A stretch of DNA of 52,125 bases from assembly GCA_001938485.1 (NCBI GenBank), contig MQRK01199284.1, forward strand, positions 1 through 52,125, given 5' to 3'. The stretch comes from Girardia tigrina (lineage: Eukaryota). The notes under the pieces are model-generated. The model made no database searches. It worked only from the letters and a program-made list of their open reading frames with translations, and was not told the DNA's origin. Positions 4,096 to 50,066 of this stretch are shown piece by piece; the first letter of the stretch is position 1; each line of letters starts with the position of its first letter. Position numbers and translations under genes: made by a program.

Positions 4096-7000
4096 CTACT
4101 GGAAAATAATAGATAATTATTTTGACGGTAAAAATATTGACACGGTCAAATACAGAAGGGAATGATTTATTAAAGAAACTCATAAAAAAATCTAAATTTT
4201 AATACAAATTATACTTTTAAAAACGTTTTAAAAGATTAATGATCGGCTATATCATATTGACAAAGACATTTAGTACCTTGTAAATCTTCAGAAAACTAAT
4301 TATTTGAATCAATATGAAGATTTACACTTTAAGTAAACTTCAATTGCAATATTAATAATAGTAATAGTAGTATATAGGAGTGCAACTTCACGTTTAGCAG
4401 TTCGAAGGTTAGGCATGTGGTTAAGTTGGCAGCTTTTCTAGAGAATTGGTTACATAAATGGAACTATAATGTCACACCTTTCGTAATTTCGGACCCTCTG
4501 TATCTTATATTTTTGGTATTTGGTTGCGGATGGTAGACATAAGCAAGGCATGTACAGTGGACAGACAAGAAACCATTCTAATTGTAACTGATCGAAGCAT
4601 AATTAACATCACTGCAAATTTATACTCCATATTTCAGGATGATCACTGCGTTTTATGTACTGGAGTTCCGAAGCTTGTAAAAAAGTGAATCGTGAAATAA
4701 TAAATGCTTAATATTTAAGCATATGACTTTCAAAAAGATCTGTCAATGTAAGAAATCTTTGATACAGCAGCGAACGGCTTGTGTATTTAAAATTTGGTGT
4801 ATGAAAATAATTTAATTGGATTTGCGATCATTATAAAACTTTTCAGAATTTCAGTGAGAAAAATAATTTTCAATTGGCACTGGAAACCCATGAACGCATT
4901 GATGTAGAAGTAGTTGACGAGATTGAATCTGACATAAAAGATTTTACTGAATGTGAAAAAAAGAGACATCAATTAATGAAGTATTGAATGTAGTAAGAAA
5001 ACTTAAATTTTTGGATTTGCAAGAAAACCCATGAATTTTTAGGGCAGGTTACTAGAGCTGATAAAGTGATGAACGGATATGTTTGTGAAAGGCGAAAAAA
5101 TTAAGGAAACTTTAATCTAAGATTAATTTGAAGAAAATTCTTACCAGAAAAATTCCTCTAAAATCATTAATTTCGGAGTTATTTTATTTGGAAACTGTTT
5201 GAAAAGATTAATAAAAAATTTTTATTGAATTATTATAATAGTTTATAATTTATGATTAAAATGATATCCATTGTATTAATATTTTATAATTATAAATTAC
5301 TATATAATAATTTATAATTAAAATGATATTCGCTGTATTAATATTTTTGTAAATCAACAAATATTGTGTTGTAACTAATAAATTATTGATTTTCGAGGAT
5401 TTGTTTTTCTAAAGAAATTGTTTATTGAGGATTATTTTTAAGTATTAAGTATGTTGTTTGTGGTATTGTATCCCTTCTACTCAAAATTTCGATTAATATT
5501 TTTCAATGTTTTATGATTTAAATGGTTCGGAAAGAATTTAAAATTTAGAATCATAAGCGTTTGTGTGCATAATATATTTTAATAGCTTTAATTGCTAACT
5601 TTTTATTATATCAGGTCATTCTATAAGTTCTGTCCGATTTTTACATATTTAAAATTGAACGAATTTAAGGAGTATTTTAAAATGTCTGATTGAGCTGAAT
5701 ATATTTTTTATTTTTAGATGCATTGACACTGATCAAATTTATTTGATTTTATAAATCAATAAATTTAAATTTTGCTTCATTAAAACCCTCCGAACATGGA
5801 TGCACTAAAGAATCATTTGAGGCTCGTAATGCTTTATGATTTTAAGAAAGGAAAGTCAGCAGCCGAAACAAGTAGAAACATTTATTCAGTTTATGGAGAG
5901 GAATTTATGAATAAACGAACTTGCAGAAGAGGATTTACGAAATTCAGCTGAAGAGATATCATTCTTGAAAATGAGGATCGAAAAGAATTTCCTGTTTAAT
6001 TTGATGATTATCTTCTTGAAACAACTCTTAAATAAAATCTTAATTCATCATTTGAGCAATTGGCAATAAAGCTTGGTTCAAACCATTCAATTATACCTCG
6101 TCATCTTCGACAACTTAAAAAAGTTTCTAAACTTGGAAAATAGGTACCTCCTGAATTATCTGAAAGTAATCTCAAATGCCGTGGTAAAATCTGCTTTTAT
6201 CTCCATTTCATCATTTTTTCATCTCTTTTTGATAGACTTGTGACTGATTACAAAAATTGATATTTTATCAAAATATTAGGCTTCGTAGACAGAGACTGTA
6301 CAGAGAGAGACCCCAGACACAGCCAAGAAGAGAAATTCATACGGAAAATGTTCTTCTTTCAATCTAGTGAGATTACCAATAAAATATCTACCTCGAATTC
6401 TTACTAGTTAATGCAATAATTAATGCTCAACTCTACTGTCAGTCATAAGAGCTTTTCACATAAAGCGTTTGTGGAAAAAAGACCTACTTTAATGAATCAC
6501 TGTTGATGTTTCATCATTAAATGTACGGCCTCATAAAGCAATAATGACTCCACAAAAGATCGAAGAACTTGGTTGGGAGAAAATTCATCACCCAACTGAT
6601 ACCCCTTCAGATTATTATTTGATTCGTAGCTTACAAAATCATTTGAAAGAAATAAATTTTGCAACTCAGAAAGAGGTTTAAAATGCCATATGTGATTTCT
6701 TCAAATCAAAACTAAAGGAATTTAACAATGAAGGTTTTATAAGGTTGCTAATAGATAGGATAATCAGGGGAAATGCATTTATTATTGAATATTTAATTAA
6801 ATATAACACTTGATCACCTGTTTTCTTTATTCGAAATTTGTGTCAGACTTATGGGATGACCAAATAATGATGACGGGAAAAGCTGAGTTCAACTTAAAAA
6901 AACTGTATTCTTTTAAGGATGTCAAACATTTTCCTTAATTGTCAATCTTTAAGATAAATATATCTGATATTCATTCTATTTTATTGATGTTATTTTACCG

Positions 7001-10000
7001 TTATATTTATCTTATTTTAGCCAAGAGTCAAATATAAGACAATTTACCTGTACGGATTTAGAACTGATTAGTTTAAAAATAAAAAAAAATTACTTTCTTA
7101 AATGATTGAATATCTTCATTTATTGATTTTAATTTAAGAATTAATATAAATTCCATAAAAAAGACGCTTTATTTTTAAACAGCTGCTGAAAATTCTATAT
7201 ATTATAGGAAACTTAATTTTAGCTATTTCGGGGTGTTTTTAATTGAATAGTTATATGTTGGCTTTTTAATCATGAATCTTAAGAGACTAATAAAATATAT
7301 CTTACTTGCAGTTCGCAAATGAGCCATTCTATTGGCTTCGGGTTCGTTTAACCATTTACACATTCGTCGAAATGTTTCACGACCAGATTTTAATTTGCTC
7401 CAAGGTTTCGGATTTCTTAATAAATCTGATAAAGTTCCCTGACTTCTACACAAAACCCTTTGCGCAAAAACTGCTTGAGGAATACTGTACCGCTTCAATT
7501 CAGCACTTATTCTTTGAGCTAAATCCTTAGAGGAAAAATAATTTCAATTATTTAAAATATCGATAAATATTTTTTTATTAAACTAGTATTGAAAATTGCA
7601 AAATTAGATTTTATAATACATAACTGTTACTATTAAATATTTCAGTAATAATATCTTAACATTAAATAAATAGAAATTTATTTATTACCTATAAAAAACA
7701 AAATTAAATAGAAAATTGAGTAAAAATAAATAAATTATAAAAAATATAGTTCTTTAACACTTTAATGAAAGTTTCTTATGGAATTGTGGTAAGATTCATC
7801 AGTTTTAAACCTGTCTTTGTCTCGTTCTTTATCAGTGTTTTTTTAATTGAATTTTACTTGAATGAAAATTTTTATGTGGGCTATGGATCACATGAACGTC
7901 AAAGTATTGAAAATTACGCTTATATCGAAAGCTTTTACTACCTAATTTTATAACCCATTTTATTTAATGAAATTTATCATCAATTACTAAAAACTAATAA
8001 TCCATCAACTTGAAACATTAATTTCTTTTTAATTTATAAAGACACTCGTAAGTAATCGTAAAACTCTTGTTTAGGTAGTTGACGAATTAATCGATTAGTG
8101 AGTAATTTTTAATTCATTCACGTGTTGTCATCGAGATTACACAACTGTGTAATTTTTTCTAAATCAGACCACGGGAAGTGAGTGAACTGTTGGCAAGATT
8201 TTTTAATAAGATAATTTTTAATTAACATTTTGAAGACTGTACCGATGGGAATGCATTCCACGAGAGTAAATTTATATTTTTTAGACCGGGGTACCATCCT
8301 GGAGCATTTAAATTAATGTCTACGTCAAATTATTGTACACTCAAAAATAATATGCAATTTACAAAAAATGTCGGTTCAATAGTAAGAAATGCGATTTTGC
8401 TGTGCGGTCTTCAACGTGTTAAAGAACAGAATAATCGAGAAATAATGAACTATGGACGAAATAACTATTAATTTTTCAGATTAAAGTCTTTCTATAGACA
8501 GTCGTAATTGTTTAAAGAGTTCAATGGATAGATTATACATCGTTTTTATTATTATATTTGCTGCAGAATGCAACTATCAATCCTTTAACAAAAGGTAGGT
8601 TGTTATAGAATAAGAATTCACAATATTATTCTGAAACCGATGAATAGTACAGTTTTAGAATGATTCATTTTATTACTTGAACTTAGATCTTCCACATTTT
8701 TGGTATTATTGAATAGATTCAAAATTTATTTGATAACTTTTCTGCTTTGTAAAAAATTTGGACACCAAAATTAATAGTGAATTCAATAAAATTTCAGTAC
8801 AAAGTGTAATAAATTGATATCCTTATTCAGGACCAAATTAACTTGGATATTAGCGATATTATATATTGATTTGAGAAATACTTTTTATATAAGGACGTGT
8901 TTATCTTGTATTTTCTATGTATAAATTTGAAGATTCTAATCTCACAGAATAAATAAGTGTACAGATAAGTGATATTCTTAAAATCCTTTGTCTTTCCATT
9001 CATCTCTAATAACTAATATGTGTAAATATATCTTTTGTATCCTATTTCAGTGAGGTTTCTCCTAAATTATTAATGATAAAATCAATTACACACTCAAAGA
9101 ATGTAGAAATAAATTGCAACTGATAGTTAACAATAGTAATCATAAATACATGTGACAAGTTGATAAGTAAAAATTAAGTCCGTTTAAAATAGTTCCGTAG
9201 AGCTGAAATGATACCGTCAGTAAATCAGTGGTTTAATAGACAAGGATGTATTTTCTGCGAATTAAGAATGAAATTCTTTAATCAAATAACAATTACTAAA
9301 GCTAAAGAGATTGAATAACTTTTACAATATTAATTTGTCATAATAATTTTTGCGGAATTAAATTCGTAAGTTTTAAAAATAAAATAGGCACAGCTTCAGC
9401 AATTGATACAGATGAAAAATTTGGAAAAGGGAATTTCATAACTTTCACTGGAACTGACAATAAATTCTCGACATTAATGTCAGGATTGGGTCAAAATACG
9501 ATTGAAAATTCTAATGTAAGGAAGTATTCCTTTTTGATTTTTTTTGAAATACTTATGATTTTTATTGACTTATAGATTACCAATTTGAATCCAGGTAATC
9601 ATATATGTGATTTTGGCATTAATAATTACTTTCATTTTAAGGGTTTTCTGAATTACCGAAGAATTGAATGACTTGTGGATCCTAAAATAAATATTCTTAT
9701 TTTTGTGTATACAATATTCTTACTTGAAACGATCGAATTGATTATTCTTGTATTTATTGAAAAAAATATGGTGACAAAAATATAAATTAAACAGTTTAAA
9801 AAGTAACTCATCATAATTGTAAATACAATGCATTATTGATTAATTTGCAAATATACAGGCGAATCAAAATTTAGTCAGTGACCTAAAACCGAAGGTGGCT
9901 CAACCGTGGAAATATATTATGTCCTTGAAAAATACATTATAAAATGAATGAGCTTCGATTTTAATAAAAACTTTTCATCCGGCTTTCAACTTACATTTAT

Positions 10001-13000
10001 GCATTTATATTTGTTATTTACATAGATGTATAATATTTGATGATAAGTGGCGTTAAATAATTTTCATGAAATATGAAACACCAATGTAATTACACATTGA
10101 TATTAAAAGTTTAACAAATGTGTTTTAATATAGATGCATGAATAATGCATCAAATTTACCTAGTAGTGCCATTAATTAGTTCAAACATCAAGGGATCGTG
10201 AAAGAATTAACAAAAATCTATTTTAATTATATTAACCCAATAAAAGAATTAATCTAAATAAAGAATATATTGTTTTTGTTTAACCAATATAGTTTTTAAC
10301 AATTTTAAGATATTTATTTTATAAAATTGTTCGTAACCACCAAAATGTTTTAGTGATCAAAAATCTATTTCATTAATTTAATAAACCAAAACAAGTGGCT
10401 GTTTCCCTAGGCAGTTTGATCTTAATCATAAACCTAACAAAACCAATATGACCGAAAAAATTCTCATTGTAACCAGCAAATACCACCAGCTGACCTTATG
10501 ATGTTACTTTGAACTAGAATCACTTTTAGAGTATTATATATTAAAAGGTTAGAGTAGCTACTGGAATACATATTAGGAACACCAAGCTTTTTGAATATAT
10601 ATTTATCTACAAAACACAAATATATAAGTTCTTATGTTTATTCTGGAGCACATTCCTCATCGACTTTAATATTTGCACAAAGTGATAAAGATAGGTTCCA
10701 AATAAACTGCTATTTGCAAGTTTCGTCTGTGATTCCCAATATTCAGCACAGTTATCATCCCACAGTAAAAGTAGTGGAAGAAATAAATAGGATACATAAA
10801 CATTTTAAAGAAATATTAAATCAATTAATGTTTGCAAAAGATTAAAAAGTAAATCTACAAGTTTGATCAAAGTGTTTCATAAGAATTGAAGGCAATAAAT
10901 TCAGAATATAGTTATTCTTGAATCAAGTTGATGAAAAGATGGATTCCTTAGATTCAAAAAAGATAGACAAAACAGCGACTGAAACTCGAAAAGAAATAAA
11001 GTAAGCACAAAAATACAAATTTAATGTACACATTGTAACATGTGTTTCGTTATTTGATAATATTTCATGCACAATTGTTTAATAAAACTTTATCAAATGA
11101 GCAAAACGGATAAAACTATTACAAATCAAAAAATCTGTGAAATAACTTGTCAGAAAATATTCTCTGCTATTAAAAGTAGAACTTTAAAAAGAAGGAAAAC
11201 ACTGAGTTTATCGGAACTTAGAATAGTTTCATTTATTGGATAAAATAGACAATAGAATGACATTGGATAAGTAAATATTTCTGGGAGCCCCGAATCTCAC
11301 TTTTGTGGTCTTGCACAATGGTCTCGCTCTTAAATGCAATATATATCATAATTGTGCACATCGTTATGTAAATCTCATTCATTTTTGTCACCAAAGTGCT
11401 TAATTGCAAATGTAAATTGTTTTTTAACATCATAAACAATCTGGCTATTTATACAAGAATGATTTATGAAATCATTTTTATTTATCATGAATTATCTAAA
11501 GGCTGTTGATTTTCTACTTCTTTTTTTACAAGAAGGTAATTGAATAAATCAGTAATTCTCAGGGTTGTCCATATAACACCTCTTAACATCAAGATATCAT
11601 TCGATAAATATACATTTTTATTTAGAGATTAATTTATATATTAGTTTGTTACAAAATGAATGCAGGTTTTTACCGCAATATTTTATTTATATTTTTTTAT
11701 TTACCGCAATGTTTTACGACTAAAGCATGTATGATGTTATGAGTCATTCGAAAGCTCTTTCAGATATATTTTTTTTAAAACTTATTATAATGTTTTTTTT
11801 GTTAATAATTACGATTTTAATTGCAAATGTCAAAACGTGATTTTCGCAACATTTACTTCTACGAGTTCTTGCTAGGGTGTAACGCAGCTCAAACCGCTCG
11901 AAACATCAACAAAGTTTTGCTCTGGCAATACCAGCCTGGAAGATGAACCTAATGGCAGCCGCCAATCGAAGATTGACAAGTAAGATCAAAGCTTACCATG
12001 GTTGTAACGGGTAACGGGGAATCAGTGTTCGATTCCGGAGAGGGAGCCTGAGAAACGGCTACCACATCCACGGAAGGCAGCAGGCGCGCAAATTACCCAA
12101 TACCGGTTCGGTGAGGTAGTGACAAAAAATAACAATATGGGCCCTAGTGGTTTCATAATTGCAATGAGAACATTTAAAATACATTATCGAGTATCAATTG
12201 GAGGGATAGTCTGGTGCCAGCAGCCGCGGTAATTCCGCTGATTAATAAATCGTGAGACTGTTGAGGTAACTTTTGTCGATTTGAACCTGCATGATCACGT
12301 AAAACGCCTTGGCTTAGTTTCAAAACTTGACATATTGGTTCGACGTTTTCAAAAACTTCAAGAAAATGATGATTTTTTTTTTAAATAAATCATTAGTGGC
12401 AACGAGAAATGGGTTATTTACAAAAATTTTAATTGCAAGAGATTATGGAGTAAAAAAGATAAGCCAGCTCTAACCACTTCAATATTCACCAAAATAGGTC
12501 ACGCTATTTGTTTGGTGGGATTTCAAGCTGATAATGTTTCTAGTTTCTAACAGATAATACCACGATTAATTTTGAAGTGTACTGTGATCAACTGGACAAA
12601 TTGAATGATTCACTCGAACAGAAAAGGCAAGATTTGATCAATAGAAAATGTAATGCTCCACAACGATGATGAGAAATCTCATGCAAGTTTGCTAACTTGC
12701 TAAAATCTTTTAAATCTTAAATATGATTTTCTAGCACAACCACAGATTTGGCTCATTTGGACTATTTTTTGTTACGAGAATTTTGACGGGAATACCTTCA
12801 CTTCAAATCAGGATGTCAAATATCACTTGGAACCATTTTTGTCAGTAAAGATCAGAAGTATTATGAGAGTGGAATTAATCTCCTGTCCGAAAGATGGCGA
12901 AAAGTATTAGACCAAAATGGAGAATATATAATTTTTAATGTTTATACACTCTAAAAATTGTATTTCATTTTCCCCAAAAAAACGATAAGACTTTCCGAAT

Positions 13001-16000
13001 AGCCCAAATATTAAATAAATCAGAAAAATGAAAGACAAATTAGCGTGAAAATTAAATTATTTAATGTTAAACAATTTTTTACACTTCACTATTAATCTGA
13101 TTTTGAGAAAATAATATAATAAAGTTATTAAAACCAATATTCATTTTAATTTGAGATTATCAACACGAAATAACAGTTTCTTTTATAGTGGTTTTTGAAT
13201 AGAAGTTTATTAGAGATATATTTTCTTTTTGCAAAAAAACTTATTTGTCACGCGATTGCAAAAGATATTTTTATATTCGAGTCACAATGTTTTAAAGAAA
13301 TAATTTATTTTGTTAATTTCATAAGTGTTCCATCAATTCAAAACTTGGTGTAAATGAGTTATTCGATCATTTTGTTATTTTACAATTTTGTTTGCATAAT
13401 AAACAATTATCACTGACTGCCATCAGCATCAAAGCTAGCAGATGCTCTTCAAGCTGGCTCACACAGCCTCACGATACACCGGTGAGTCACGACCACCCTC
13501 TGTCTGCAATCATCACAATGCACTTTTAATACAAATGTCCCTTTTGTCTATAAATCATCATTCATTCTATTACAGAGTTTTAGAAAATTTAATAATATTT
13601 ACAAGTAATACACTTTACTTTACAAGTAACTTTTCAATTTAAACGTTTGTGATAATAAAGACTATATTAATGAAATTTATAATTTAAAAAATCTAATTAT
13701 CTAATTTAGTATTTTGTTAAGATTATTTGTGCTATATTCAATCAAATTTCTGGAAAAATCATTTTAGAAAATTTGAAATTACTAATGTTAAAAAATAGAT
13801 AATATAAAATTCAAGATATCATTTTGTTCCCATTCCTGCATCTACCGTTTTAGCAAATTGCTTATATCTAAGTGAATGCACTATCAATAAAAAATAAGTG
13901 TTTCTTCGAATGAAACTTAAATTTTAACAAATTTGTACCTTATCACAAATGACAGTTTAATTAAATTATATATCTTTCCTTTTACCTAGAGCCTTCATTG
14001 AATTATACAATAGAATTTTACTAAAATATATAGACTGATAATACCAGTAGATTTCCATAGAAACATTGAGTTTAATAATATTTTGTCCCTGGAAAGATAT
14101 TCATTATTTTTAAATAGATTATTTATTAAATCGATTTCCATAAACAATAACACGCACTACTCGTTTGAGACTATATACACAATGTGAATGATACATATTT
14201 ACGAGGTTTCAAAAATACTTTACAAAAAAGGAACAGATTCCTAGAAGGATTCAAGCCACTCTTCCAGTTTAACTGAAGTTCTGGCGACACATACTGAAAT
14301 ATTGATAATAAAAAAACATTAAAATCTTTATTAATGTTTCTCAAAAAAAGAAATAACATTAAACTAATTCTAAAATAATAAAAAATCATTATGGTTAATT
14401 TAGTAAAAATATGACTATAAAATTATGTTGGTTTTAATTTATAAATAGTGGAATGTAAATTTTCAGAATAAATAGAATAAAAAAATTTTCAATTTTAAAT
14501 AACTTATCAGTTTATTTATATTTATATTTTCATATTTTTATATAAAAAATCTGGTCAAACGAAAAAGTTCCTCGACAAACAATTTTTTATTAAAAAAAAT
14601 TGTTAACTAAAAATTGTTTGAATAATTGTTAATTGTGTTATTAATAAATTTTTGGTGTTAATGAATTATAATATTGATCAAGAACCTAACATGGCGACCA
14701 TCGCCAGCAGCTCCGAATAACTAATTTCGAGGCTTATACCAGACAAATTTAGGCGACAAGATAATATGGAAACTTGCATTTTGGCTTGCGCAAGATACTT
14801 CAAAGTGGCCAAAGTATCGGAAAGTATGCAAGAGATTTTGGTAATTGGTTTATTGTCACACGAACTCGTACCGATATACGAAAGTGTGGGTCCCGAAGTG
14901 AAGGGATATGAAGCCCGTCTACGACAAGATTTTCAGACGAAAAGCACGTTAATGGATGATTTGATAGAGGCGGTAAACTTCGACAGATCTGGAGAATCAG
15001 TGGAGGAATTCTTCGTTAAAGCAAAAAAGTTGAGAGGTAAGTTTGATTCAGATTGTGTGGGTCCCTACTTTTTAGGCTTATTGGAGAACTGCCAGCTGCT
15101 TATATAGATGGTTACTTCATGTGAGTTTAAGATTGAAAATACATACCAAAAGCATCACAGAGAACAACTGAAAACCTGGATACATCTGGCAACTAAAACA
15201 GAAAGAGATGATTGATCTATTTATGATTGATCAGAATAGATCAAGATTCCTATTTGACTTATAAAGTTATTCATAATTATAATGCACATCGAACCTTTTG
15301 TTGTTAACTACATGATTCTGAAAGTGAAATGGAATAATGCTAAGAAGTTACCACACAGGCTCCATAAAAATCAGTGGCTGAAGAAAGCAGAGATTAGAAT
15401 AATGCATGAAGATTGATGATGAATGGTAATTCGGCAAAACAACCACCTTCGATGATTTTATTAAACTTTTCAAACAGGATGGTTCTTAAACCTGAAATCG
15501 AAACAAGCTTGATCTAGTAATCCTTGCAAAGAGAGCTACAAAGAAAACTATAACTGACCTCCCAACACTGATCAACAAGAGAATGAACTGATGAACGAGA
15601 ACTGCTACAAAGAGTTTTCTGAACAAATAAAATTGAACCGACATGTTTGCAATGACCACCAGAACACAAAGCTAGATGAAGGTCAAAAACCTTACCGATG
15701 TCAGCTATGCTTGAAGAGTTACTCAACTGAAGGATTTCTGAAACGTACACAAAACCACGGAAGTATCAACCTCAATCCAGCAAAAGCGACAAAAATTAGA
15801 AAAAAGCACAGAAGCTACGAAGGAAGACAGATCAAAAAGCACCAGCAACATTCAGGTACTCACCGTACATGCGAATTACTCAACAAATTCTTCTGGGACT
15901 ATATAGAAGTTGCAAATTTTCGATTGACTGACTGTTTGGAAAAAGAAAACTTTAAATGTCCATTAGCTGGCTGCCCTACATCTACTAGATCAACTAGAGG

Positions 16001-19000
16001 AATGCAAAGCTATGGAACATTCAAACATGGTTGGTCGTTTTTCATAGGAGGACCGAAGAAAATTAGAAAGAGGAAGGTTGATAAACCCATCGGAGACCTA
16101 TCGGAAGGCTAGCTCAATTCCATTGAAATATATTGGAGGCTTTCATTGGAGAGACAAATCGTCATCTCAAAATCAGGATTAGTGAGCATTCGCAATCGAG
16201 TCGATTGAATAAGGTTATTGATCATTATTTGTAAAATAGAATATCATTTGTTTTATAGAATGAGCTTTCAGTTTAAGAGAAGGACTTCGATTAAGATTAC
16301 GAGTAACAGTTCTGTGAATCATTATTGATAAAACACTTTAATTTGAAAAATATTGATTTAATAAGAAAATAATGTATTTAATACGAAAAAAATATCAATT
16401 TAATATGATAAATATCATTTTAATATGAAGTAAAACTTTTACAATACGTTTGTAAAACTTTTGCAATTTATATTAAATTGATGTTTTTTTCATATTAAAT
16501 ACACAATCTTTCATTCTAAATTGAGAAATTTTCATTTTTAAATGAAATTTTTTCATATAGTTAGTGAATTCGGCAAAAATAGACTAGTTCATAAATTCGG
16601 CAATTACACTAATTAGCAAACTGTTGCCGATTTCACGAATTCGGCATAACATATACATGGATTATTTCAACTGTAAATGAAAATAATATTATCTTATAAC
16701 GGAATAATTATATTACAGCATTACCTCAGTAAACCGCGGGTGCTGGGAACCATCATTTTAACCCGCGGTTTAGATAACTTCGGTTAACTGAAAGTTAATA
16801 TTTGTAGCAATATAAAATTGGGTATTTGTAAGATATGACGCTTATTAAAAGAAAATTAGCTATTTTACTAACTTAATTTTTTTTCCAAATACCACAAATA
16901 CCAGTTTCGGTAATACCGGTATTGAAATCCCTAATCATAATGGTATTAATGTATGTCTGTGGATATTATGTATTATTGCCATGTTTGAATAATAATATCA
17001 GGTTTAAGAAACGACAACAATTAAAATATTTTTGGGATCTATACAAGCATCCACGGTGTACTGAAGGGTTACTGTATTTGTTTTCTAAACAATGAAAAAA
17101 GTGATTTCTAGCAATACAATTAAGTCAGTTTTATAATTAACAGCAGTCATATAATTAACAGCACGTAAAATTATGTCAGAGTCTGATAATGTTGTTAAAT
17201 TGGTAGTTCGCCTAAGTGTAAATCCATTTCTCTTCATAAACCCTGTTATCCAATTTCCAGTAGCCTTTAATTTAATATTAAACTCTTTACTCAAGGCTAC
17301 TGCCCTATCAGAAATATATGGAAGATTCAAATTAATGAATCAATTAATTATTAACATTTGTGTATACAGGCAAACTCGGTTATCTCGAATATACGGCTAT
17401 CTCGAATTTTTTTTCCGTCCCGCACGATTCGAGATAAGCGAGTTTGACTCTATATTGATTTCTTAAGATGATTTAAAAATCAATTATTGGATATTAACTT
17501 GTTCTAAAACATTTTGTTAGATTTTATTCTTAAAATTTTCATATTAGTCTTTAATATTTGTATATTAAATGAAATTCTTTTACTTAAAAAATTTAAAAAA
17601 ATTAATCAAATTGCAGTTTGTTTAACTGCATCAATTGTAATAACGAAAATTGAAAAATAAATAATTTTTTTGAGTTTTGGGTATTTTGATGGATAATTAT
17701 AAATTTCAACGACAACGATCACCTATTCCAATGAATGTCTTTTCGGATCAACGAGAATTAAATGAACCATTTGAATTAAATACGATTAAAAATAATTTTG
17801 AAAATTATTTATGATTTAAAACCAGCTCAAATTAAACTAAAAGAAAATATAATTCCTAATAATGAAATACGAATTGTTTTGAATAAAAATTTGAAAGTAA
17901 AACTGTTTACTGTGAGATCGAGCAATAAAAATTTAAAAATGGCTAACTAATATACTTCCGACTAACTTTCATTTTTCGTATTCTAAGATCCATTATCTCA
18001 TCGCAAATAATTTGTTCTATAGTTCCCAAACTGGTTTTCCTTCCTGCTCCCAACGCTCTTTAAATTGTTGGTTTTTTGATTAGCAAGTTTTTCTTTGTTT
18101 CTAAACCACTGTTGAAACATAGAATGATCATACATTTTCCCGTTTTTAACTTCGAAATGCTGTTTAACAATACGTTTTTTCCTTGCAACATAAACTCGAT
18201 TACTTCTTTTTCAAAGCGATTGTGAACGACCGTTTGGCCATAATAATTTTTTAAATGGAATATTTATTAATATTAAAACAATTTAATTAAATGATTTTAA
18301 AAATTAATTATTTGTTTTCAAGTGATTTTTAAAAAAAAATTAGGTAGTAATACTAATAGGGTCGTGATACTATTTAAATAATATCACTAAAAAAATTTTT
18401 ATTATTTGGGTCGTGATACTATATGGGTTGGTGATACTAATTGGTGATATCCTTTAATAATCAGTTAAGAAATTAAATGATTTGTGAATTTTTTTATAAT
18501 TATTGGATGCGAATTCAGAATTCAAGTTCATAACACCTATTAAGAACATTTAGATAAGTCGCGTTTGAACTTTTATTACAATCACATTTAGAGTCATTAT
18601 GACTCTCAGAAAGTCTTTCATCGTTTGTCATCATTCTAATTGATTTTCTTATTTTTTTTAATCATGATTATTCGAAAAATTTTTCTAAGTCATTCTTTTT
18701 AGATACATTTTTATTGTATATTAATTAAAAATAATAAATTTTACCATTTCTCAATAAATCCCAAAATAATAAAAATTTCATCAAATTATTAAAAATACAT
18801 TTAATTTAAATTTTACCAAAAAATATTAAACTTAATTTTAATTGTGAAATTAAAAATATGAACTCATAAAATGATTATTTTAATTATGTTTGAATAGTCA
18901 ATCACTTTAAAAATAAACAAAAAAATACTAATTTCCATCTGGGTAGGAGAATCACCATTCTAAATTCAACATACTTAAATCAACATACAGCATCACTACA

Positions 19001-22000
19001 TTTACATATTCAAACAATTTAAAATATTCCTCACATCCCTCTCGGTTTAAATGTCTTTAGCCATTCTACATTTCTGATCAAGATCGTGCCGTCATCTAGT
19101 TGTATCTCATAACTTCTTTCGTGTCTTTGCTTTATAATTTTAGCTGGTTCCATATAGCGGTCATCATCTTTTGATGGGTTAACTTTCTTTATCAATACTT
19201 TATCTACGACCTGAAATATTCACTTTGTTTCAATTGTATTTTTATTTTCTTTTTCTTCAATTTTTCATTCTGCTGTGTTCTTCCACCAATTTCAGAGTTT
19301 TCTTCCGAAGATTATCTCGGCTGGAGATATTCCAGTTGTTGCTTCAGTTGTACCGTTTAACATTTCTGTCAACATTTCTACCCAATCTCTATGCATTTCA
19401 TCCTTTAATCTTATATTGATGGCGTCTCTTATTGTTCTGAATTGTCTTTCTATGATCCCGTTAGTGTTGTGGTGATAAGGGCTTGAGTAGACTATCTCCG
19501 TCTTAAATTTCTTCGTCGTTTCTTTAAAGAGTGCTGATTCGAATGCTCTATCAACGTGTATCTCTGTTGGTGGTCCGAATTTCCAAATCCATTTCTCTAA
19601 TAGTACCTGTCGTGTAGTCTTCTCGTCTTGGTGTGGCACTGCGGTCAAGCTGATGTACCTACTAAATTGATCTATTATTGCTAAAATGTATTGATATCCA
19701 TTCATAGTCCTTCTGAATGGTCTGCAAAGTCCATGTAAATATTTTGAAATGGTTCGTCGGCAGATTGTTTAATGTGTTTCTCTTTCGTTTTTGCTGTCAG
19801 TGTCTTCCTTTTCTGGCAGTTTTCGCAACTTTGTACGATTTTCTTTATCTGTTGTCTTATTCCATACATATCGAAATCATATTTTATGTAATTGTATACT
19901 TTTTTACTTCCTGCATGGCATAAAATTTTATGTATATCTTCTATAAAGTCTGTTCTCTTCTTCATAGGGATCCAATATTTGTTATCTCTTGTCGTCACGA
20001 TATTGTTTTTCAGTAGCCATTCTTTTGTCTTTCCCCTTTTAATATTTTCTTTAATCTGTTCTATTTCTTCATTATTCGTCTGCAAAATGAAGTCTTCTGA
20101 ATCTTCTGTTAATGCTAGGAGTTTAGTTTAACTTTTCCTTTTTAGCGTCATCGTGCATTGCCTGACATTGTACACATAATTCACATGTATTTCTCGACAT
20201 TGCGTCTGCATTGGTGTGTTTTTCGTCCTTGCGGTATTCTATCCTCATGTCTAGTCCACTAAGGAAGTTTATCCAAGTTTGGAATTGTGGAGTTATTGGG
20301 TTCTTCGTTGTCATCATGAATGTGATGGCCTTATGGTCCGTTCTAAGTAGAAACTTCTTTCCGTATAAGAAATGTTTGAAGTGTTGGGTAAAGTAATAGA
20401 TTGCCAATAATTATTTTCTTGTAATACAGTATCCCAGTTCGTCTTTGTTCATCTTGTGGGATTCATATGCAATTACTCTTTCCCTTCCATATGCATCCTT
20501 CTGTACAAGTACTGCCCCGATTGTATCAAAACTGGCGTCTGTATCCAGTATAAACTCCTTTTCAAAATCTGGATATGCTAGGATCGGTGTTTTTGTTATT
20601 TTATCTTTTAAATTTTGAAATGATTCGTCACATTCCTTTGTCCATGTCAATTTTTTATCTTTATTTTTTTAACATAGGCCTTCCAGTATTTTTGAATATT
20701 TTGCATAATCCTTCAAAAATTTTCTATAATACTTCGTGAGCCCCAAGAAACTTCTTAAATATTTAATGCATGAAGGATTTTGAAATTTGTCAATTGCTTA
20801 AATTTTCGTTTTTTTCCGTCTCTAAACCATCTTCGATCACGACATCCTAAAAATTTTGTCTTTTCTACCATGAATTGACACTTTTTATGGTTTATCCAAA
20901 GACCCGATTCTTTAATCTTTTGAAATATGTGTTCGACTCGTCTGAAATGTTCTTCTTTGTCTTTTGCGAAGATCAGAATATCGTCCAGGTATACAACTGC
21001 TTCATTCTAATTTAATTCTCCTAACACTCTTGTCATTAGTTCTTGAAATGTCGCTGGAGCAGCTGCAATTCCGAATGACATTCTTTTAAAACAATATTGG
21101 CCGTTCTTTGTCGAAAATGCAGTTTTTATTTTTGAATCGTTCTCCAATTCAACTTGATGATATGTACTCCCCAAGTCGATCGTGCTGAAGTACTTCGCTC
21201 TATTTAATGTATTCAGCATTTCTTCTACATTTGGCATTGGAAGTGCTGGTCTGATTGTGACTTTATTTAACTGTCGAAAATCAACACATACTCGGATATC
21301 CTGTTTGTCTTTTTTTCATACGCATACTAGCGGAAAATTCCACGGCGAACTGCATTATTCAATGATAACATTTTCCTCGTAATTCTTGATAATATCTCAT
21401 TAATCTCATATTTACCATATTTTGAGTAACACAGACACTCTCTCACAAACAGTTTTTGTCTAAAGTAATAATGTATGTACCGTAGTTTGTACATTGTTTT
21501 TCTCTTATTCTGATTATTACGAAAATCGGATATAAGTTGAATTCATTATACAACAACTAAGAATACTATAAGATTTTTTATTTCTATAAATCTGGAAATA
21601 TTTTGAAAAACCAAGGAAATGACAAATCATACCCAATACTTTAAGTATTGGTCAAATGCTTGTGAATAAATGTTCAAATATTATTTTAAGTTTTAATATT
21701 TTTGATTAGAAATTTTCGATAGCTTTTTAATATTCTTTTCTAAGCTCAAATTTCATATGTTTTTGTGAGTTCTCAATCAATCAGGTGATTCATTCATTAA
21801 TTCCTTACATGACAAATTTTGACAGATCCCCGAAACTCGAATATATTATATTCTCTTTTCACACGAATTATTTTTAAATATTTTGAAAAAAAATAAATAA
21901 ATAGAGAATTCGTTGTAATTATAAAGTTACTATTAGTTAGGACATTTGTATGGATGATACTCATTTGTTAATAATTTATCTATAATGTTTAGCCTATGAA

Positions 22001-24113: not shown

Positions 24114-27100
24114 TATATCAAAATAATTAATGTTAAAATTCACTGCAGAGATTTATCATTGTACTTAATTGTTGATATGACTTCATAATTTATGTGCAAT
24201 AATAACTCAGGTATCATTTAATCTTTGTAAGAAGTAAATTCGATTTTCTTGATGGCGAATGTAAAAACGTGTTCCATTCATCGACAGATGGATAAAAATT
24301 TAAATTTTATAATTGAAACATTAAAGTACAATAATTTCAGATAGGAAAATGGGAAAATTATTTAAAATCTTGACCTAAAAATATTAATTCTGATTTGACA
24401 CAATAGCAAATATCAGAGAAATGGTTAAAATTCGTTCAAATATGAAAAAAATTTCATCAAAAACGCAATGATTCTGTTTCTTTATTGAATTTATTTACTG
24501 ACTAGTTTATGTTTTACATTATATATCCATTTGAATGAATTTTATATCCAAGAACTTTGTCATTATCAAGGAGAATTAGTTTTTTAATAAAAAAAATCAA
24601 AATTCTATGTAAAAATATATTGATTCAAATTACATGTCGCATTTGTGGGGACAAATTTCTGGCATCTAGATTAATATAAATTTAATTACTGTAATACAGA
24701 TAAGAAGCAAAATAAGTCTTAAAATTTGTTACATTGAATATTCAAAATTATAAAGATGTGCCGCACATTTTCAAACGTTACAGTAATAATTATAATCTTT
24801 GTCACAAGTACTTCAACATGTATTGTGAATGGTCAGACTGTATGATTTATTATTTTAGAAAAGGTCAATAAATTGGTAATGTCTACCAAATTTCTGATGA
24901 CATTTATCACTTCTTTAATATGGTTGCTTTAGATCTTCTACTGGAACACGTTTGTAAACATTATGTCGTAGATAAAAATAACCCGTAAATAAAACATAAC
25001 GAGCTTTTTCAAAAAGTACATAAATATTTTTAAATTTATCATTATGGCTTATAAAGCTTATTTTTTGTAGTACTTTCATATACCCTTCCATAATTTTATC
25101 AAGAATCAGTGAAAAACGAAGAAACATCTTTTCAGTAACCATTAATTATTTCATAATTTACGACATGTTTCGTTCTTATAAGAACATCTTCAGGTGGATC
25201 ATCATTGATAGAACAGATTTATAAATATTCAAAACTAAAACAACAGTGAGTCTGTATAAAGCATAGCGTATTTGTCAAAATTCTGATATAAATAACTTTC
25301 AACACTAAAAAGATTTATATAAAAATACTACTATTTTAATTCATTTTTAAAAATTACATTAATATATTTTTCCAAAAAGAATAACTTTTAATAAATTTAG
25401 TCTTTTAAAACATTTTTTTAAATACAAAAACATTAATTTTACTAATCCTTTAAACAATATTTTTAGTAATTTAAAAATTATTAATAATAAATAATAATAA
25501 ATAATAAAAATTAAATAAAATTTTAATACCAAAATATTATTTTATATATGTGTGTGTGTATAATAAAGAACAAACGCCATTTTAGTAGTTTTTAGCGCAA
25601 TTTCCATACTGACAATTGCGATTATTAATTGGTTATTTCTGTGTGGATGGATGGATGTGTGTCCGCAGCTTTAAGTCGTATCTCCTCCTCAACGAAGCAA
25701 TATCGAGGGCTAGTTCCAAAAGCAAATATGTTAAGCAAGTTTCGAGGATGATTGTGGGCCAAAAAAATTCCCGGAATTCCTTCATGGATTTCCCGGAAAA
25801 GCCAAAAAACCTCGAAAAATGCAGTTTTTGGCCTATATCTCGGCAACCTGACCACATAGCGACTTGAAACATTTACCAATCGATTACTACAATAATTTAG
25901 AACAATATTGCCGAAGAAAGTTTTCAAAAATATCCTTTCGTTCGGTCACAAAAAATTAATCATAGTCAAGTACTGATATAAACGTTTTAATATTTGGGCA
26001 CCGAATAACATAAGGAAATTACGCTTAAATTGTCACTAGACTTTTTATTAACTTGTTTTATTTTCCAAAGCATGTTTTGCATTACGGCATCATCAGTTGT
26101 GAAGTAAATGTCAGATTACAAGTCATTTATATGGGACAGAGACTATTATGCAACTAATCTTTTTTTAATATTAATCAAATATTTCTCCAAAATCAGGAAT
26201 TTGGCAGGCAAACTGTCTTTTTTCGAACAAGGATGTCCTGACGATGCATCTCCGAAATTTCCTTGAGAATATGATGACCAGATTCAAGCTGGCAAGGGAG
26301 CTGGATTGTCTCAAACACCATATTCAAGAGATAATTGACATTGATTGGAACTTTGTATAACTCCCTGTTCGTTTAAAATTATTGTAGTGACACAAATTTT
26401 TATCAGTATTTATAAATATTAAATATATATACATAAAATCATATATTTCTTATTTATAATTACAATTTCCTCGAAATTGAGACACTGTTAATCAAAATTG
26501 CATATTATTTTCTTCAAGTGATTATAAAGCCCATTTATAAGAAACCTTCTTGATTTAACATATCGAACTTAATAATTTTATCTTAATTAATTCGATGTTT
26601 TCTTTCAATGGATTAAATTTTTTTTGTAATTCTAGTGAACGGTCTGATTTTTTTTGAGTAAAACTTTTCATGTAAATTTGGTTTTTTTATAATTAAAAGA
26701 TTGTTTAAATATTGTACATTGTTTAAATATGGAACTTTTAGAAAATACATTTTTTTGAAAATTAATTATTCTTTTCGTCTGATAATTGAATGGTTGATAA
26801 TTTCCCATTTTGGTCGAATGAGTTTCCATTCGCTCGAACTCGTCAATAACGACAACAAAAACGATAAATAAATAATTTCCACAATCGAAATTCCGGTCTG
26901 CCTCGTCCAGCCAGTGTTCTCACCAATCGACTTCAATTCATCAAAAAGAAAATNNNNNNNNNNNNNNNNNNNNNNNNNNNNNNNNNNNNNNNNNNNNNNN
27001 NNNNNNNNNNNNNNNNNNNNNNNNNNNNNNNNNNNNNNNNNNNNNNNNNNNNNNNNNNNNNNNNNNNNNNNNNNNNNNNNNNNNNNNNNNNNNNNNNNNN

Positions 27101-30100
27101 NNNNNNNNNNNNNNNNNNNATCACCGATGTGAGACTCGTGTTCCAGAATTGCTACATCTTCAATCCTCCGGAAATCGATCTGATCAGCATGACTCTGACG
27201 CTCGAGAACATCTTCAACTCGAAACTCGAAAAATTACCGTACCAAGAAAGCGACATCTCCTCCGGCATCAGCAACACCAACAGCGCCAAGAAAGACACGA
27301 AATCCAGCAGTATCAACAACGATTCGTCGTCGGAGCCGCCACCAGTGTGCGACATAAAGAAATCACTCCGGCCGACCACTAAGCGCATCAAATCNACCTC
27401 GAATTACAACGAAGCGACATCGACCCATGCGAGCAATTGTTCGATTTCTCCGGACGCGAAATCCAAATCGAAAAAACGGAAAGTCGAATCGTGTTACGAT
27501 TTATCGTTCGAGCTCCCAGAACATGTCAGACGGTCAATAGAGGCGATATTACCAGTCGATTGCGTCGCCATGGTGATCGAGCTCGCGTGGAACAAGAACG
27601 ACGCCAACCGCAACTGGGAGGACAGTCTGTGTCCCAAGTCCGACGCGACGAAGAGACTTCTAAAATTATATTTGTGTCTTTCTATTGGAGATTATATCAT
27701 ATACCGGTATATATAGAAGGAATTATGAAAAAGGCTATTTTGGATAATGCTATTATATATATATATATATAATTTTTACAGTAAACTGTAATTTATCAAA
27801 TAATTAGATAATTTCGATATTAAAATAAATTTAAAAACAATGATAATTATGAACATGAAATTTCCAGATTTTCTAATGACCACCTTTAATTATTTGTAAA
27901 GTAGAGGTAAATATTAATAATTTATGAATATATTGAATTTGATATTGATCATCATTACATAAAATTTATCGTATTATAAACTCAATTTCAAATTTTAAGA
28001 CTTTAAAAAGCGCTATAAATATATTAAAAAAAATAAATAATTATCTTTCTTTTGTTTATAAAATAGGAAAATTATTCCCCATTCTTAAAGCCAAAATAAT
28101 TGATAGAATTTTCTTATTTCAATTCCAAAATATTTACGCTTATATTTTTACATTAAAATTACAATAAAATACATTGTTGTATCTCTAGAATTTAAAATTA
28201 AAATAATTAAGTATGAATCTGATGTATTCATTTTAATTAAGAAAGTATTTACTTATTCATAATCTGACTGAAAATTAAAATACAAATTACTGGTTTAATT
28301 CTTCAAAAGAGACTACCGAAAAATGATATCTTGATTATATTCTTTTAAATTATGCCATTTAAAAACTGATAAATTTTCGTATTAACTTTGATCTGATTTT
28401 AAACAATTTTGGCTAAAATTTTATTCATTAACTGCCTCTACGAAAAAAATATAACTGCAAATATCTTTTTATATATACTTTTATTTTTTATTCATATAGA
28501 TGTAAGGAAATTTTGTAAATGTTGTTTTATTTTATATATCTCCTATCCAGATTGTTACTTAATATTTTAAAATTATCATTTTCAAATTATTTAATTTATA
28601 TTTTAAAATATTTAATAACTTTTTAAATGTTTTCTAATTTGAAAATAAAATGATTTAAAATTGGATTTTAATGTTTTAAGTGTATTTAACATTATTAAAG
28701 TTTATTATATTGAATAGTTTTGTAAAATAAATTAAAATTGATATTTTTGAATAATTTAATTCAGCAATATTTTGGATAATTAATTTAATGAATTTGGGTT
28801 CCATTTCAGATAGTGAAAATATTACAATAAAATCATAAATATGACAAATTCAGAATGTGCTATTGCAAATTATTGTAATGACAAATCTGTTTGTGTGATT
28901 AAAAGATGTATTTTTGTCAATAACATTAATGTTAATAATAGATATATAATTGAACGATTTGATAAATTTAATAGTAATAATTTATGAAGCCATAGAAATA
29001 ACTGTAAAGATATGATATTTCTATTAACATCGAATCTGATCTGTATTATATATTACTTTCCAAATGATAATATACCCACAAAAAAAGTTGCTGAACTTAT
29101 ACAAAATATTTTTTACAAAACTTAAAAAGGATAACTCTTATTATTTATAGTTTTAATTTCAATTATTGTTAAAATAGAATTTCATCTGTAATTATAAATT
29201 AATAGAATTTTTAATTTAATTTTCTGATATTTTATAGTTACTTAAAGATACTTAAAGCTATTTATTAAAAATGTGACGACATTCAAAAAGTACATCCAAC
29301 ATAGTTTGAGAAACACTTCTAAAGTAATATTTTAACTGTCAGAAAAATTAAATAATGTAACAGTTACTATCGGTTAAACCAAAATTGAAATTCATAATTG
29401 TTTAATTTTTCAGAAAATGACTTTCAATTCTGAACGACTTAATAAGAACTGTTTAATGACAATTATTACTCGTAGAGATACGAAGCACTTGTATACCTTG
29501 AATAGAATATTTTATGGTGCAAACAAATAACTTTTCCTCTATTCTTTTCATTTGTTTTTTTAAATCAACAATTTTATCTATTAAAGTTTGATCTATTAAA
29601 TTCTAACTTGTATATGTAGTTAAATATTATATCTATTTATCTGTATATCGGATTACGAAAAATTTGGTTGTTAATTAAAGATATTAACTCTTCATCAAAA
29701 GTGTAAAATATGTGCCATGTTATACAAAATCAATTAAATAACGTACCAGGTATATATTACCAAGGAAGGACTTGTTGAAATCATTTGGAAGATAACCGAC
29801 GTTGACCTTTTTTTATCTTTGAAAACTACAGTCAATACAAAAAAGGTTTGGGAACAGTCTTAAAACATTAGTATGTGAAAATCGAAATTTTAATTAATTA
29901 TAACAAATTTGTTTTCAAAATATGGAAGTTTTATCACTAAGAATACAAAATAACAATAAAAAATATTTTTTAATTTTATATTTTGATATTTTTTCAATTG
30001 GAAACTTACAAAAAATATATTTAGTTTTTTTAATTAAGAAGATATTAATAAATTAAATATAAAAAAAGGAAAAAAATTTGTTAAAATTTCTGATTAGCAA

Positions 30101-49068: not shown

Positions 49069-50066
49069 ACTAAAATTTAAAAAATCAAAAAAATCAATAT
49101 AAATAACATTTAAATTTAAATATAGATTTTTTTTGTTTTAGTTATAGTAAAATTTGATTTTCTATATATTAATATAGTCATAAATTTATAATGGCGGTGA
49201 AGTTACTGCGCAGTTGGCAAATTGTGAAGAAAATAATAATTAGGTCATATAGATCTTTTTACAAAAATCTATTTTAATGACATTTAAATTTAATATTAAT
49301 TGATGTTTATAATTAATTTTTCATTTGATTAGTATTCGATGAAATTTAAATTTGAAAATTTTAATTTTCATTAAATGACTCATTCATGTTGACGTTTTTC
49401 TGGTATTAGAAAGCTGTAAATGTAAACTTTAATTTTTGAAATTATTAAGCTAAAATCTAAAACAGTCTTTTTGTTACTATTTTTAATATATTTTTTCTTT
49501 TTAAATTCTGTTTGTCAACTTATTTTAACGAAAATGTGTAATAAATTGAAGGAGAATGAAAATTAAATAAATAATGATTTAATTTTATATTTTCAGATTA
49601 TTGTTTTTTAGACAAAAATTTTGTTTATAAATTTTAAAAAAAATTTTTTTAAAGACGTTCAAAAAATTTTGAAAATTTTTTGTCATGTTTAGATGGATTA
49701 GAAAGTATTATTAATAAATAAAGTTATCAAAATGTACTTTAAATGTCTGTAAATTGTGAATTTTTATTATCAATTTTTGTGATGTACTGTGGTTATTTAT
49801 AGAGGATCATGTTATTTTAAAATGATCACGTTTTATTGTGATTACTTTTGGTTAATAATTCATGGAATTGTAGTTTATATTCTTAATGTTTATTGGATTT
49901 CGATTAGTTTTATTAAAAATTTTATTTGATGGAAGAATACTATCTTTAGTGGTTTTAAGTCAAAAAGTTGTTCAATTAACTGATTTTAAATTGGAATATA
50001 ATATCCTGATTAGAATTCAACAGTGGAAAAAATCGTAGTCTCATTAAGTGGAACATTATATAAATA

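Follow-up and report, generated by a model that had tools for sequence, protein, structure and literature searches.

How did a piece of an 18S ribosomal RNA (rRNA) gene come to lie between mariner transposon sequences in an intron of a planarian ONECUT gene? The locus occupies positions 11639-13010 of a 52,125-nucleotide (nt) stretch of Girardia tigrina DNA (assembly GCA_001938485.1, contig MQRK01199284.1, positions 1 to 52,125 of the forward strand), which we call the window. An earlier note, made from the sequence alone, had described an 18S fragment captured inside one mariner transposase and had left the choice between templated repair at a break and a mobile mariner-rDNA chimera. We find that the left and right flanks of the 18S piece belong to two different mariner lineages in the same orientation. 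We favor, with a probability of roughly 0.6, the explanation that ribosomal DNA (rDNA) filler was captured when a break between two mariners was repaired with loss of the intervening DNA. The product is an inert intronic scar.

The 18S piece lies at 11980-12236 on the plus strand and is an internal 257-bp segment (approximately model positions 330-587) of what we call the alpha class; base 11980 can be read as either mariner or 18S. Its true ends were set by a search of its own genome and not by the Rfam match to small-subunit rRNA (233 bits, 11710-12242), the leftward part of which runs into mariner DNA at low posterior. The earlier estimate of about 255 bp was accurate, and so was the remark that no target-site duplication is obvious, the longest word common to the 40-nt flanks being 5 nt long and located away from the junctions. 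The piece carries no poly(A) tail and contains neither end of the RNA. It does end at the universal motif pointed out before, but this boundary is not a common one, and other dispersed copies that extend this far continue past it. Compared with the alpha-class majority, 4 of 257 sites differ (12176, 12183, 12206, and 12207), all within the last 62 nt beside the right junction, and the first 195 bp (11980-12175) are identical to the majority. The closest other genomic copy among the places scored is 98% identical.

To the left, 11639-11980 (plus strand) is the 5' end of a high-copy mariner family, here family A (cecropia-like; family nt 1-390, codons 1-69), and the family A profile matches at 11629-11979. 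This left piece contains a TA dinucleotide, the 5' terminal inverted repeat (TIR), the leader, and the first helix-turn-helix (HTH) domain (HTH_48, E = 1.3e-6). TA and TIR together occupy 11639-11668 (plus strand) and form a true left mariner end; the start formerly placed at 11738 corresponds to about nt 85 of family A and has to be moved outward. The left piece differs from the family majority in 24 of 326 columns and bears two deletions, of 11 and 53 bp, as well as a short local duplication. The 53-bp deletion, found in the window copy alone, lies about 60 bp before the left junction and has a 7-nt microhomology (11911-11917, plus strand), as seen against a sister copy without the deletion (L032). 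The 11-bp deletion and 13 derived substitutions (a few, in T-runs, are less sure) are common to this sister and the left piece, and the sister continues as plain mariner without 18S. Over 268 columns the window copy has 2 private changes and the sister 7. The sister's contig has only repeats and no unique flank in common with the window, so that the sister is a paralog and was rejected as the other allele. A small mobile subfamily marked by the 11-bp deletion was likewise rejected, as the deletion is present at three places, a second diagnostic motif at two, and one locus (L126) lacks the shared substitutions. The sister, recorded as L032/L093 (G000:C22134:6492-7420), itself lacks two parts of family A, nt 1-58 and nt 976-1246.

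To the right, 12237-13010 (plus strand) is the 3' part, about two-thirds, of an older mellifera-like mariner, which begins at about codon 82 and ends in its own TIR and TA. Positions 429-1284 of the B-clade profile match at 12235-13007, that is, starting right at the junction, and the same profile finds no B-type 5' remnant upstream of the left piece. The right flank is 71% identical to the family B majority and 47% to family A. No close copy exists in the assembly, where the best identity over the whole length is 74%; the flank differs from six older B-like copies in 162 of 759 columns, and in a tree sits on a long branch in no supported group. It carries stops, frameshifts, and a 48-bp deletion, and the transposase is dead. 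The cecropia primer motif matches family A in 15 of 17 positions and the mellifera primer motif matches the right flank in 17 of 20 (motifs as printed in PMC3036899); the two labels refer to these primer motifs only and not to a tree with named references.

Do these flanks belong to one interrupted element? The motifs SLEDEP..KID and HDHVKRLG..KLD reported on either side of the 18S piece are indeed present, but a single host mariner is contradicted by the different lineages of the flanks, and the supposedly retained TIR pair by the sequences of the two ends. The left end matches the family A majority in 27 of 30 nt and the right end (12981-13010, minus strand) the family B majority in 25 of 31, while the two outer ends match each other in only 14 of 30. 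To our knowledge, one transposase does not mobilize a pair of mariner ends as dissimilar as these. A TA is found at both outer ends (11639-11640 and 13009-13010), which is expected of two separate mariners as well. Families A and B are 56% identical in a global alignment, and identities of 40-56% at the DNA level are given for pairs of planarian mariner subfamilies in the available part of PMC3036899. A natural A/B hybrid family was rejected: none of 29 A loci has a match to the right flank, and none of 29 relatives of the right flank has a match to the left flank. The joint itself is unique. A 30-nt pattern across the left junction and a 29-nt pattern across the right junction each have a single match in the assembly when up to 2 mismatches are allowed, which argues against a mobilized chimera, and both outer flanks are single-copy in the assembly. 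The earlier note had proposed this genome-wide search and had regarded a single copy as a one-off insertion, which is what we find.

The joint has the features of filler at a repaired break, and the templated-repair branch of the earlier proposal fits. The left junction shows an overlap of 1 nt (against the sister copy) and the right junction one of about 1-2 nt (against the older relatives), the latter being less sure because these relatives are about 28% diverged. There is no duplication, and sequence has been lost, since the joint lacks nt 391-1281 of family A as well as nt 1-426 of family B. We suggest that an old mellifera-like element was resident in the ONECUT intron first and that a cecropia-like A copy then transposed into a TA upstream of it; the left end falls exactly at TIR and TA and thus points to true transposition. 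In a single end-joining or template-switch event, A would subsequently have lost about 890 bp and the B-like element up to about 426 bp, together with any spacer, and rDNA might have been copied or captured at the joint through the 1-nt and the roughly 1-2-nt overlaps. The order in which the B-like element came before the A copy, and the A copy before truncation and 18S capture, is likely. The rates of private change in the left mariner (2/268) and in the 18S piece (4/257) are indistinguishable (Fisher p 0.44), and hence the truncation, the 53-bp deletion at the microhomology, and the capture of 18S are compatible with a single period. The rRNA piece had been called less decayed than its host, which is true but strong only against the right element (4/257 differences in the 18S piece, 24/326 in the left mariner, and 162/759 in the right mariner, the last against the six older relatives).

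Which 18S sequence served as donor can be read in part from other copies in the genome. At least 39 other places in the assembly match the 18S part with 84-100% identity, and 29 of these loci were fetched for comparison. Their ends are staggered, and those loci that reach the ends of the window piece continue past them; a repeat or short interspersed element (SINE) with the same boundaries was therefore rejected, the clustered matches marking only the ends of the query piece. Of the features expected of an rRNA-derived retroposon (a SINE28-like element or a processed copy), shared ends are not seen across these 29 loci, and the window piece has neither tail nor duplication. The 29 loci comprise 17 of alpha class, 11 of beta class, and one too short to assign. 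Alpha and beta differ at 16 of 257 sites, and the window piece is alpha at all 16 diagnostic sites, with 4 differences from alpha and 20 from beta. Two 18S types, of which type I is mainly expressed, are described for these flatworms in the available parts of PMC10991399, PMC6884822, and PMC3368283. The expectation that the donor can be traced holds insofar as the piece can be assigned to one of two classes, but this class is not named as type I or type II; the probes in supplement 1 of PMC6884822, as printed there, are not split by 18S type. Both classes are dispersed, and two beta loci (L023 and L025) have in common about 150 nt of sequence that precedes the 18S start. This pattern would favor DNA donors in general, though not for the present piece in particular.

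Several points weigh against capture of filler between two mariners. The halves are nearly in register: the A part ends with codon 69 and the B part takes up at the position of A codon 80, 10 codons out, with only 30 nt of homologous transposase missing between them, and a pair of breakpoints chosen at random would lie no more than 30 nt out of register in 4.7% of cases. Chance and a reader's selection are needed here, and chance suffices because such a case is what a reader would flag. The repair may also have taken two steps instead of one. A pre-deletion allele is missing from the assembly, which holds no second copy of either flank, and the background sample used below comes from long repeat-bearing contigs and is not strictly random. 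As to the assembled joint itself, none of the run contig records listed contains a contig across the left 18S junction (11980), and the identity of the first 195 bp of the piece to the class majority makes an assembly join there formally possible. These last two points, together with the fragmentation of the assembly (255,254 contigs), are what speaks for a chimera in which a locus with mariner A and 18S and a locus with 18S and mariner B were merged via their common 18S sequence. We consider this improbable, since ONECUT exons lie on both sides in the correct order (albeit with stretches of N between the scar and the first exon), the leftover ends that such a merger implies are not seen, and each junction occurs once. 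The read test of the joint, which covered run contigs only and the left 18S junction only, adds some weight on the same side. The word share of 10800-13800 was 0.82 in DNA run X1 and 0.68 in DNA run X2, with ceilings without the right mariner of 0.71 and 0.63, respectively. Run X1 exceeds its ceiling and thus holds at least part of the right mariner; the value of X2 is within noise, and the small word shares of runs X4-X20 are no evidence. Moreover, an X1 contig spans 10800-11727 with three differences from the window and joins the intron flank to the left TIR. Word share and contig attest to the individual parts but not to the joint between them.

The near-register joint could also reflect a template switch guided by homeology, in which a fork copied from A to rDNA and on to the B-like element at a near-matching codon in one event. 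We regard this as doubtful, if slightly less so than an assembly chimera. The shared strand, the 30 nt of missing homologous transposase (about 5% by chance), the serial overlaps of 7, 1, and about 2 nt, and the confinement of all private 18S changes to the last 62 nt (post hoc p ~0.014) would fit such copying, whereas the low identity of A and B (see above), the clean TIR and TA at the left end, which point to transposition, and the lack of any other A/B hybrid among the 29 + 29 loci do not. An rRNA instead of an rDNA donor, through reverse transcription by a long interspersed element (LINE) or RNA-templated repair, seems less probable still. In its favor, the piece lies wholly within the mature 18S, and in the 18S sequence upstream of the stretch covered by the piece, loci of the alpha class agree, as compared by eye, with the one S. 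mediterranea 18S entry given in supplement 1 of PMC6884822. Against this stand the missing poly(A), duplication, and RNA ends, the dispersal of both classes although one 18S type is barely expressed according to the available part of PMC10991399, and the sequence upstream of the 18S start shared by the two beta loci, which points to DNA or precursor donors. Finally, spread of the 18S piece by a mobile mariner-rDNA chimera, the second branch of the earlier note, is very improbable. Such a chimera would account for TIR-like ends with a TA on both sides, and other 18S composites are duplicated in this genome (L016/L021 and L015/L018); the ends, however, do not match, the transposase is dead, each junction is found at one place, and no other place covering both mariner and 18S exists among the 40 scored.

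If filler was captured between two mariners, is proximity of 18S pieces to mariners unusual in this genome? The background was estimated from 20 stretches (188,920 non-N bases) of long contigs, each with a repeat match elsewhere. Mariner-like DNA makes up 8.1% of the sampled bases, and a mariner lies within 100 nt on one side at 9.3% of positions. At the other 18S pieces, 7 of 50 testable ends have a mariner within 100 nt (p 0.18; 8 ends were dropped for N or contig end), so that mariner enrichment was rejected as being at chance level. When both ends are counted, 2 of 22 other 18S loci lie inside a single mariner (L012 and L019), compared with 1.8 expected. These two loci match the description of an 18S piece inside a mariner better than the window locus. 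In L012 (G000:C201000, 1402-1806, 18S-sense), a 405-bp alpha piece sits in one mariner, in register, between DFAP and YHL, and a 7-bp direct repeat on either side forms a duplication-like scar. In L019 (G000:C173280, 1398-2015, 18S-sense), a single B-clade mariner is interrupted, in the linker that follows its first HTH, by about 100 bp of other DNA and 496 bp of 18S, and the 18S start lies within 4 nt of the start of the window piece.

Other loci of the dispersed set have features of their own. L016 and L021 form a duplicated composite of a mariner fragment and beta-class 18S (93.7% over 2.4 kb), and L015 and L018 another, with an 18S piece within a shared repeat (95-96%); both pairs represent either alleles or multi-copy units. 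L023, L025, and L026 combine a beta-class core with an alpha-like upstream helix and are possibly recombinants or members of a third 18S class. L014 (G000:C189075) is a scrambled 18S, made up of a number of short segments that come from different regions of the gene.

All component parts of the window locus are of known kinds. Templated insertions at breaks with 0-4 nt of microhomology (PMC11724301) and filler of nuclear mitochondrial origin (numt; PMC2567098) resemble it, as far as the available parts of these sources go, in a foreign piece of a few hundred bp with 0-4 nt of overlap, no duplication, a donor left in place, and local deletions. The present case differs in its rDNA donor, in the large inferred loss (about 1.3 kb or more), and in being a natural flatworm event. 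Dispersed rDNA fragments and pseudogenes (in the portion of PMC5381670 available) are similarly decaying rDNA pieces far from arrays; here, unlike there, the existence of two 18S classes makes the class of the donor recognizable. Pokey/mPok, SINE28, SINE3, and Cassandra also join rDNA-derived sequence to transposon sequence (PMC10946416). The window locus does not belong to the rDNA-bearing transposon families presented in the available part of that source, which are multi-copy, whereas it is single-copy, with unmatched ends and no promoter-bearing part of rDNA. By primer motifs, the left family fits the cecropia and the right piece the mellifera subfamily of planarian mariners, as these are characterized in the available text of PMC3036899; unlike the mariners there, fragments of both subfamilies are fused here. 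No report of an 18S piece joining two mariners was found in the literature searched by title and abstract opening.

As it stands, one inert intronic scar is of little importance, although it is a warning that what looks like one collinear "interrupted transposon" may consist of two elements. More would follow from the rather unlikely idea that planarian break repair fuses mariner subfamilies near register by serial template switching, with rDNA as a stepping stone. If this were true, near-register joints and dozens of class-typed rDNA patches would form a datable record of natural repair, and serial switching would be a route to hybrid transposases; if the near-register joint was guided, mariner subfamilies would have a way to recombine. 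In addition, with the expression of each class established, the dispersed two-class 18S set could be used to test whether donors in natural repair were DNA or RNA.

The host gene is read from the minus strand. Downstream of the scar in the direction of transcription lie the exon for the CUT domain (7304-7537, minus strand; CUT, Pfam E 9e-34) and the homeobox exon (3.7-4.1 kb, minus strand). Upstream, an open frame at 48097-49137 (minus strand) contains the likely first ONECUT coding exon near 48.3-48.8 kb, which weakly matches the N-termini of 2 of the 7 ONECUT relatives tried (P0001 and P0026; E 3e-4 and 0.003). With exons on both sides, the 18S piece is intronic and antisense to 18S in the ONECUT pre-mRNA, as the earlier note had stated; no function is indicated for this antisense sequence. 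The intron that hosts the scar is about 40 kb long. Both the ONECUT relatives and the presence of two 18S classes indicate a triclad flatworm.

In the intron flank next to the scar, the cover of run X2 ends at 11322 and is missing as far as 11578, while X1 continues (11323-11578), possibly owing to a structural variant or a filter effect; the X2 gap at 11333-11578 is uninformative on an unbroken allele. Loose ends at 11624 in runs X3 and X4, at depths well beyond that of single-copy DNA, were attributed to another repeat. Elsewhere in the window, a third decayed mariner (5765-6681, plus strand) lies in the next ONECUT intron, and the long intron contains broken frames at 18922-21396 (minus strand) that are 74% identical to a copy in L093. 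The latter frames resemble reverse transcriptase, RNase H, and integrase, and we take them to be a long terminal repeat (LTR) retrotransposon. At 26868-27716 (plus strand), on the strand opposite to ONECUT and partly under N, there is what we assume from its motif to be a bromodomain-like gene fragment.

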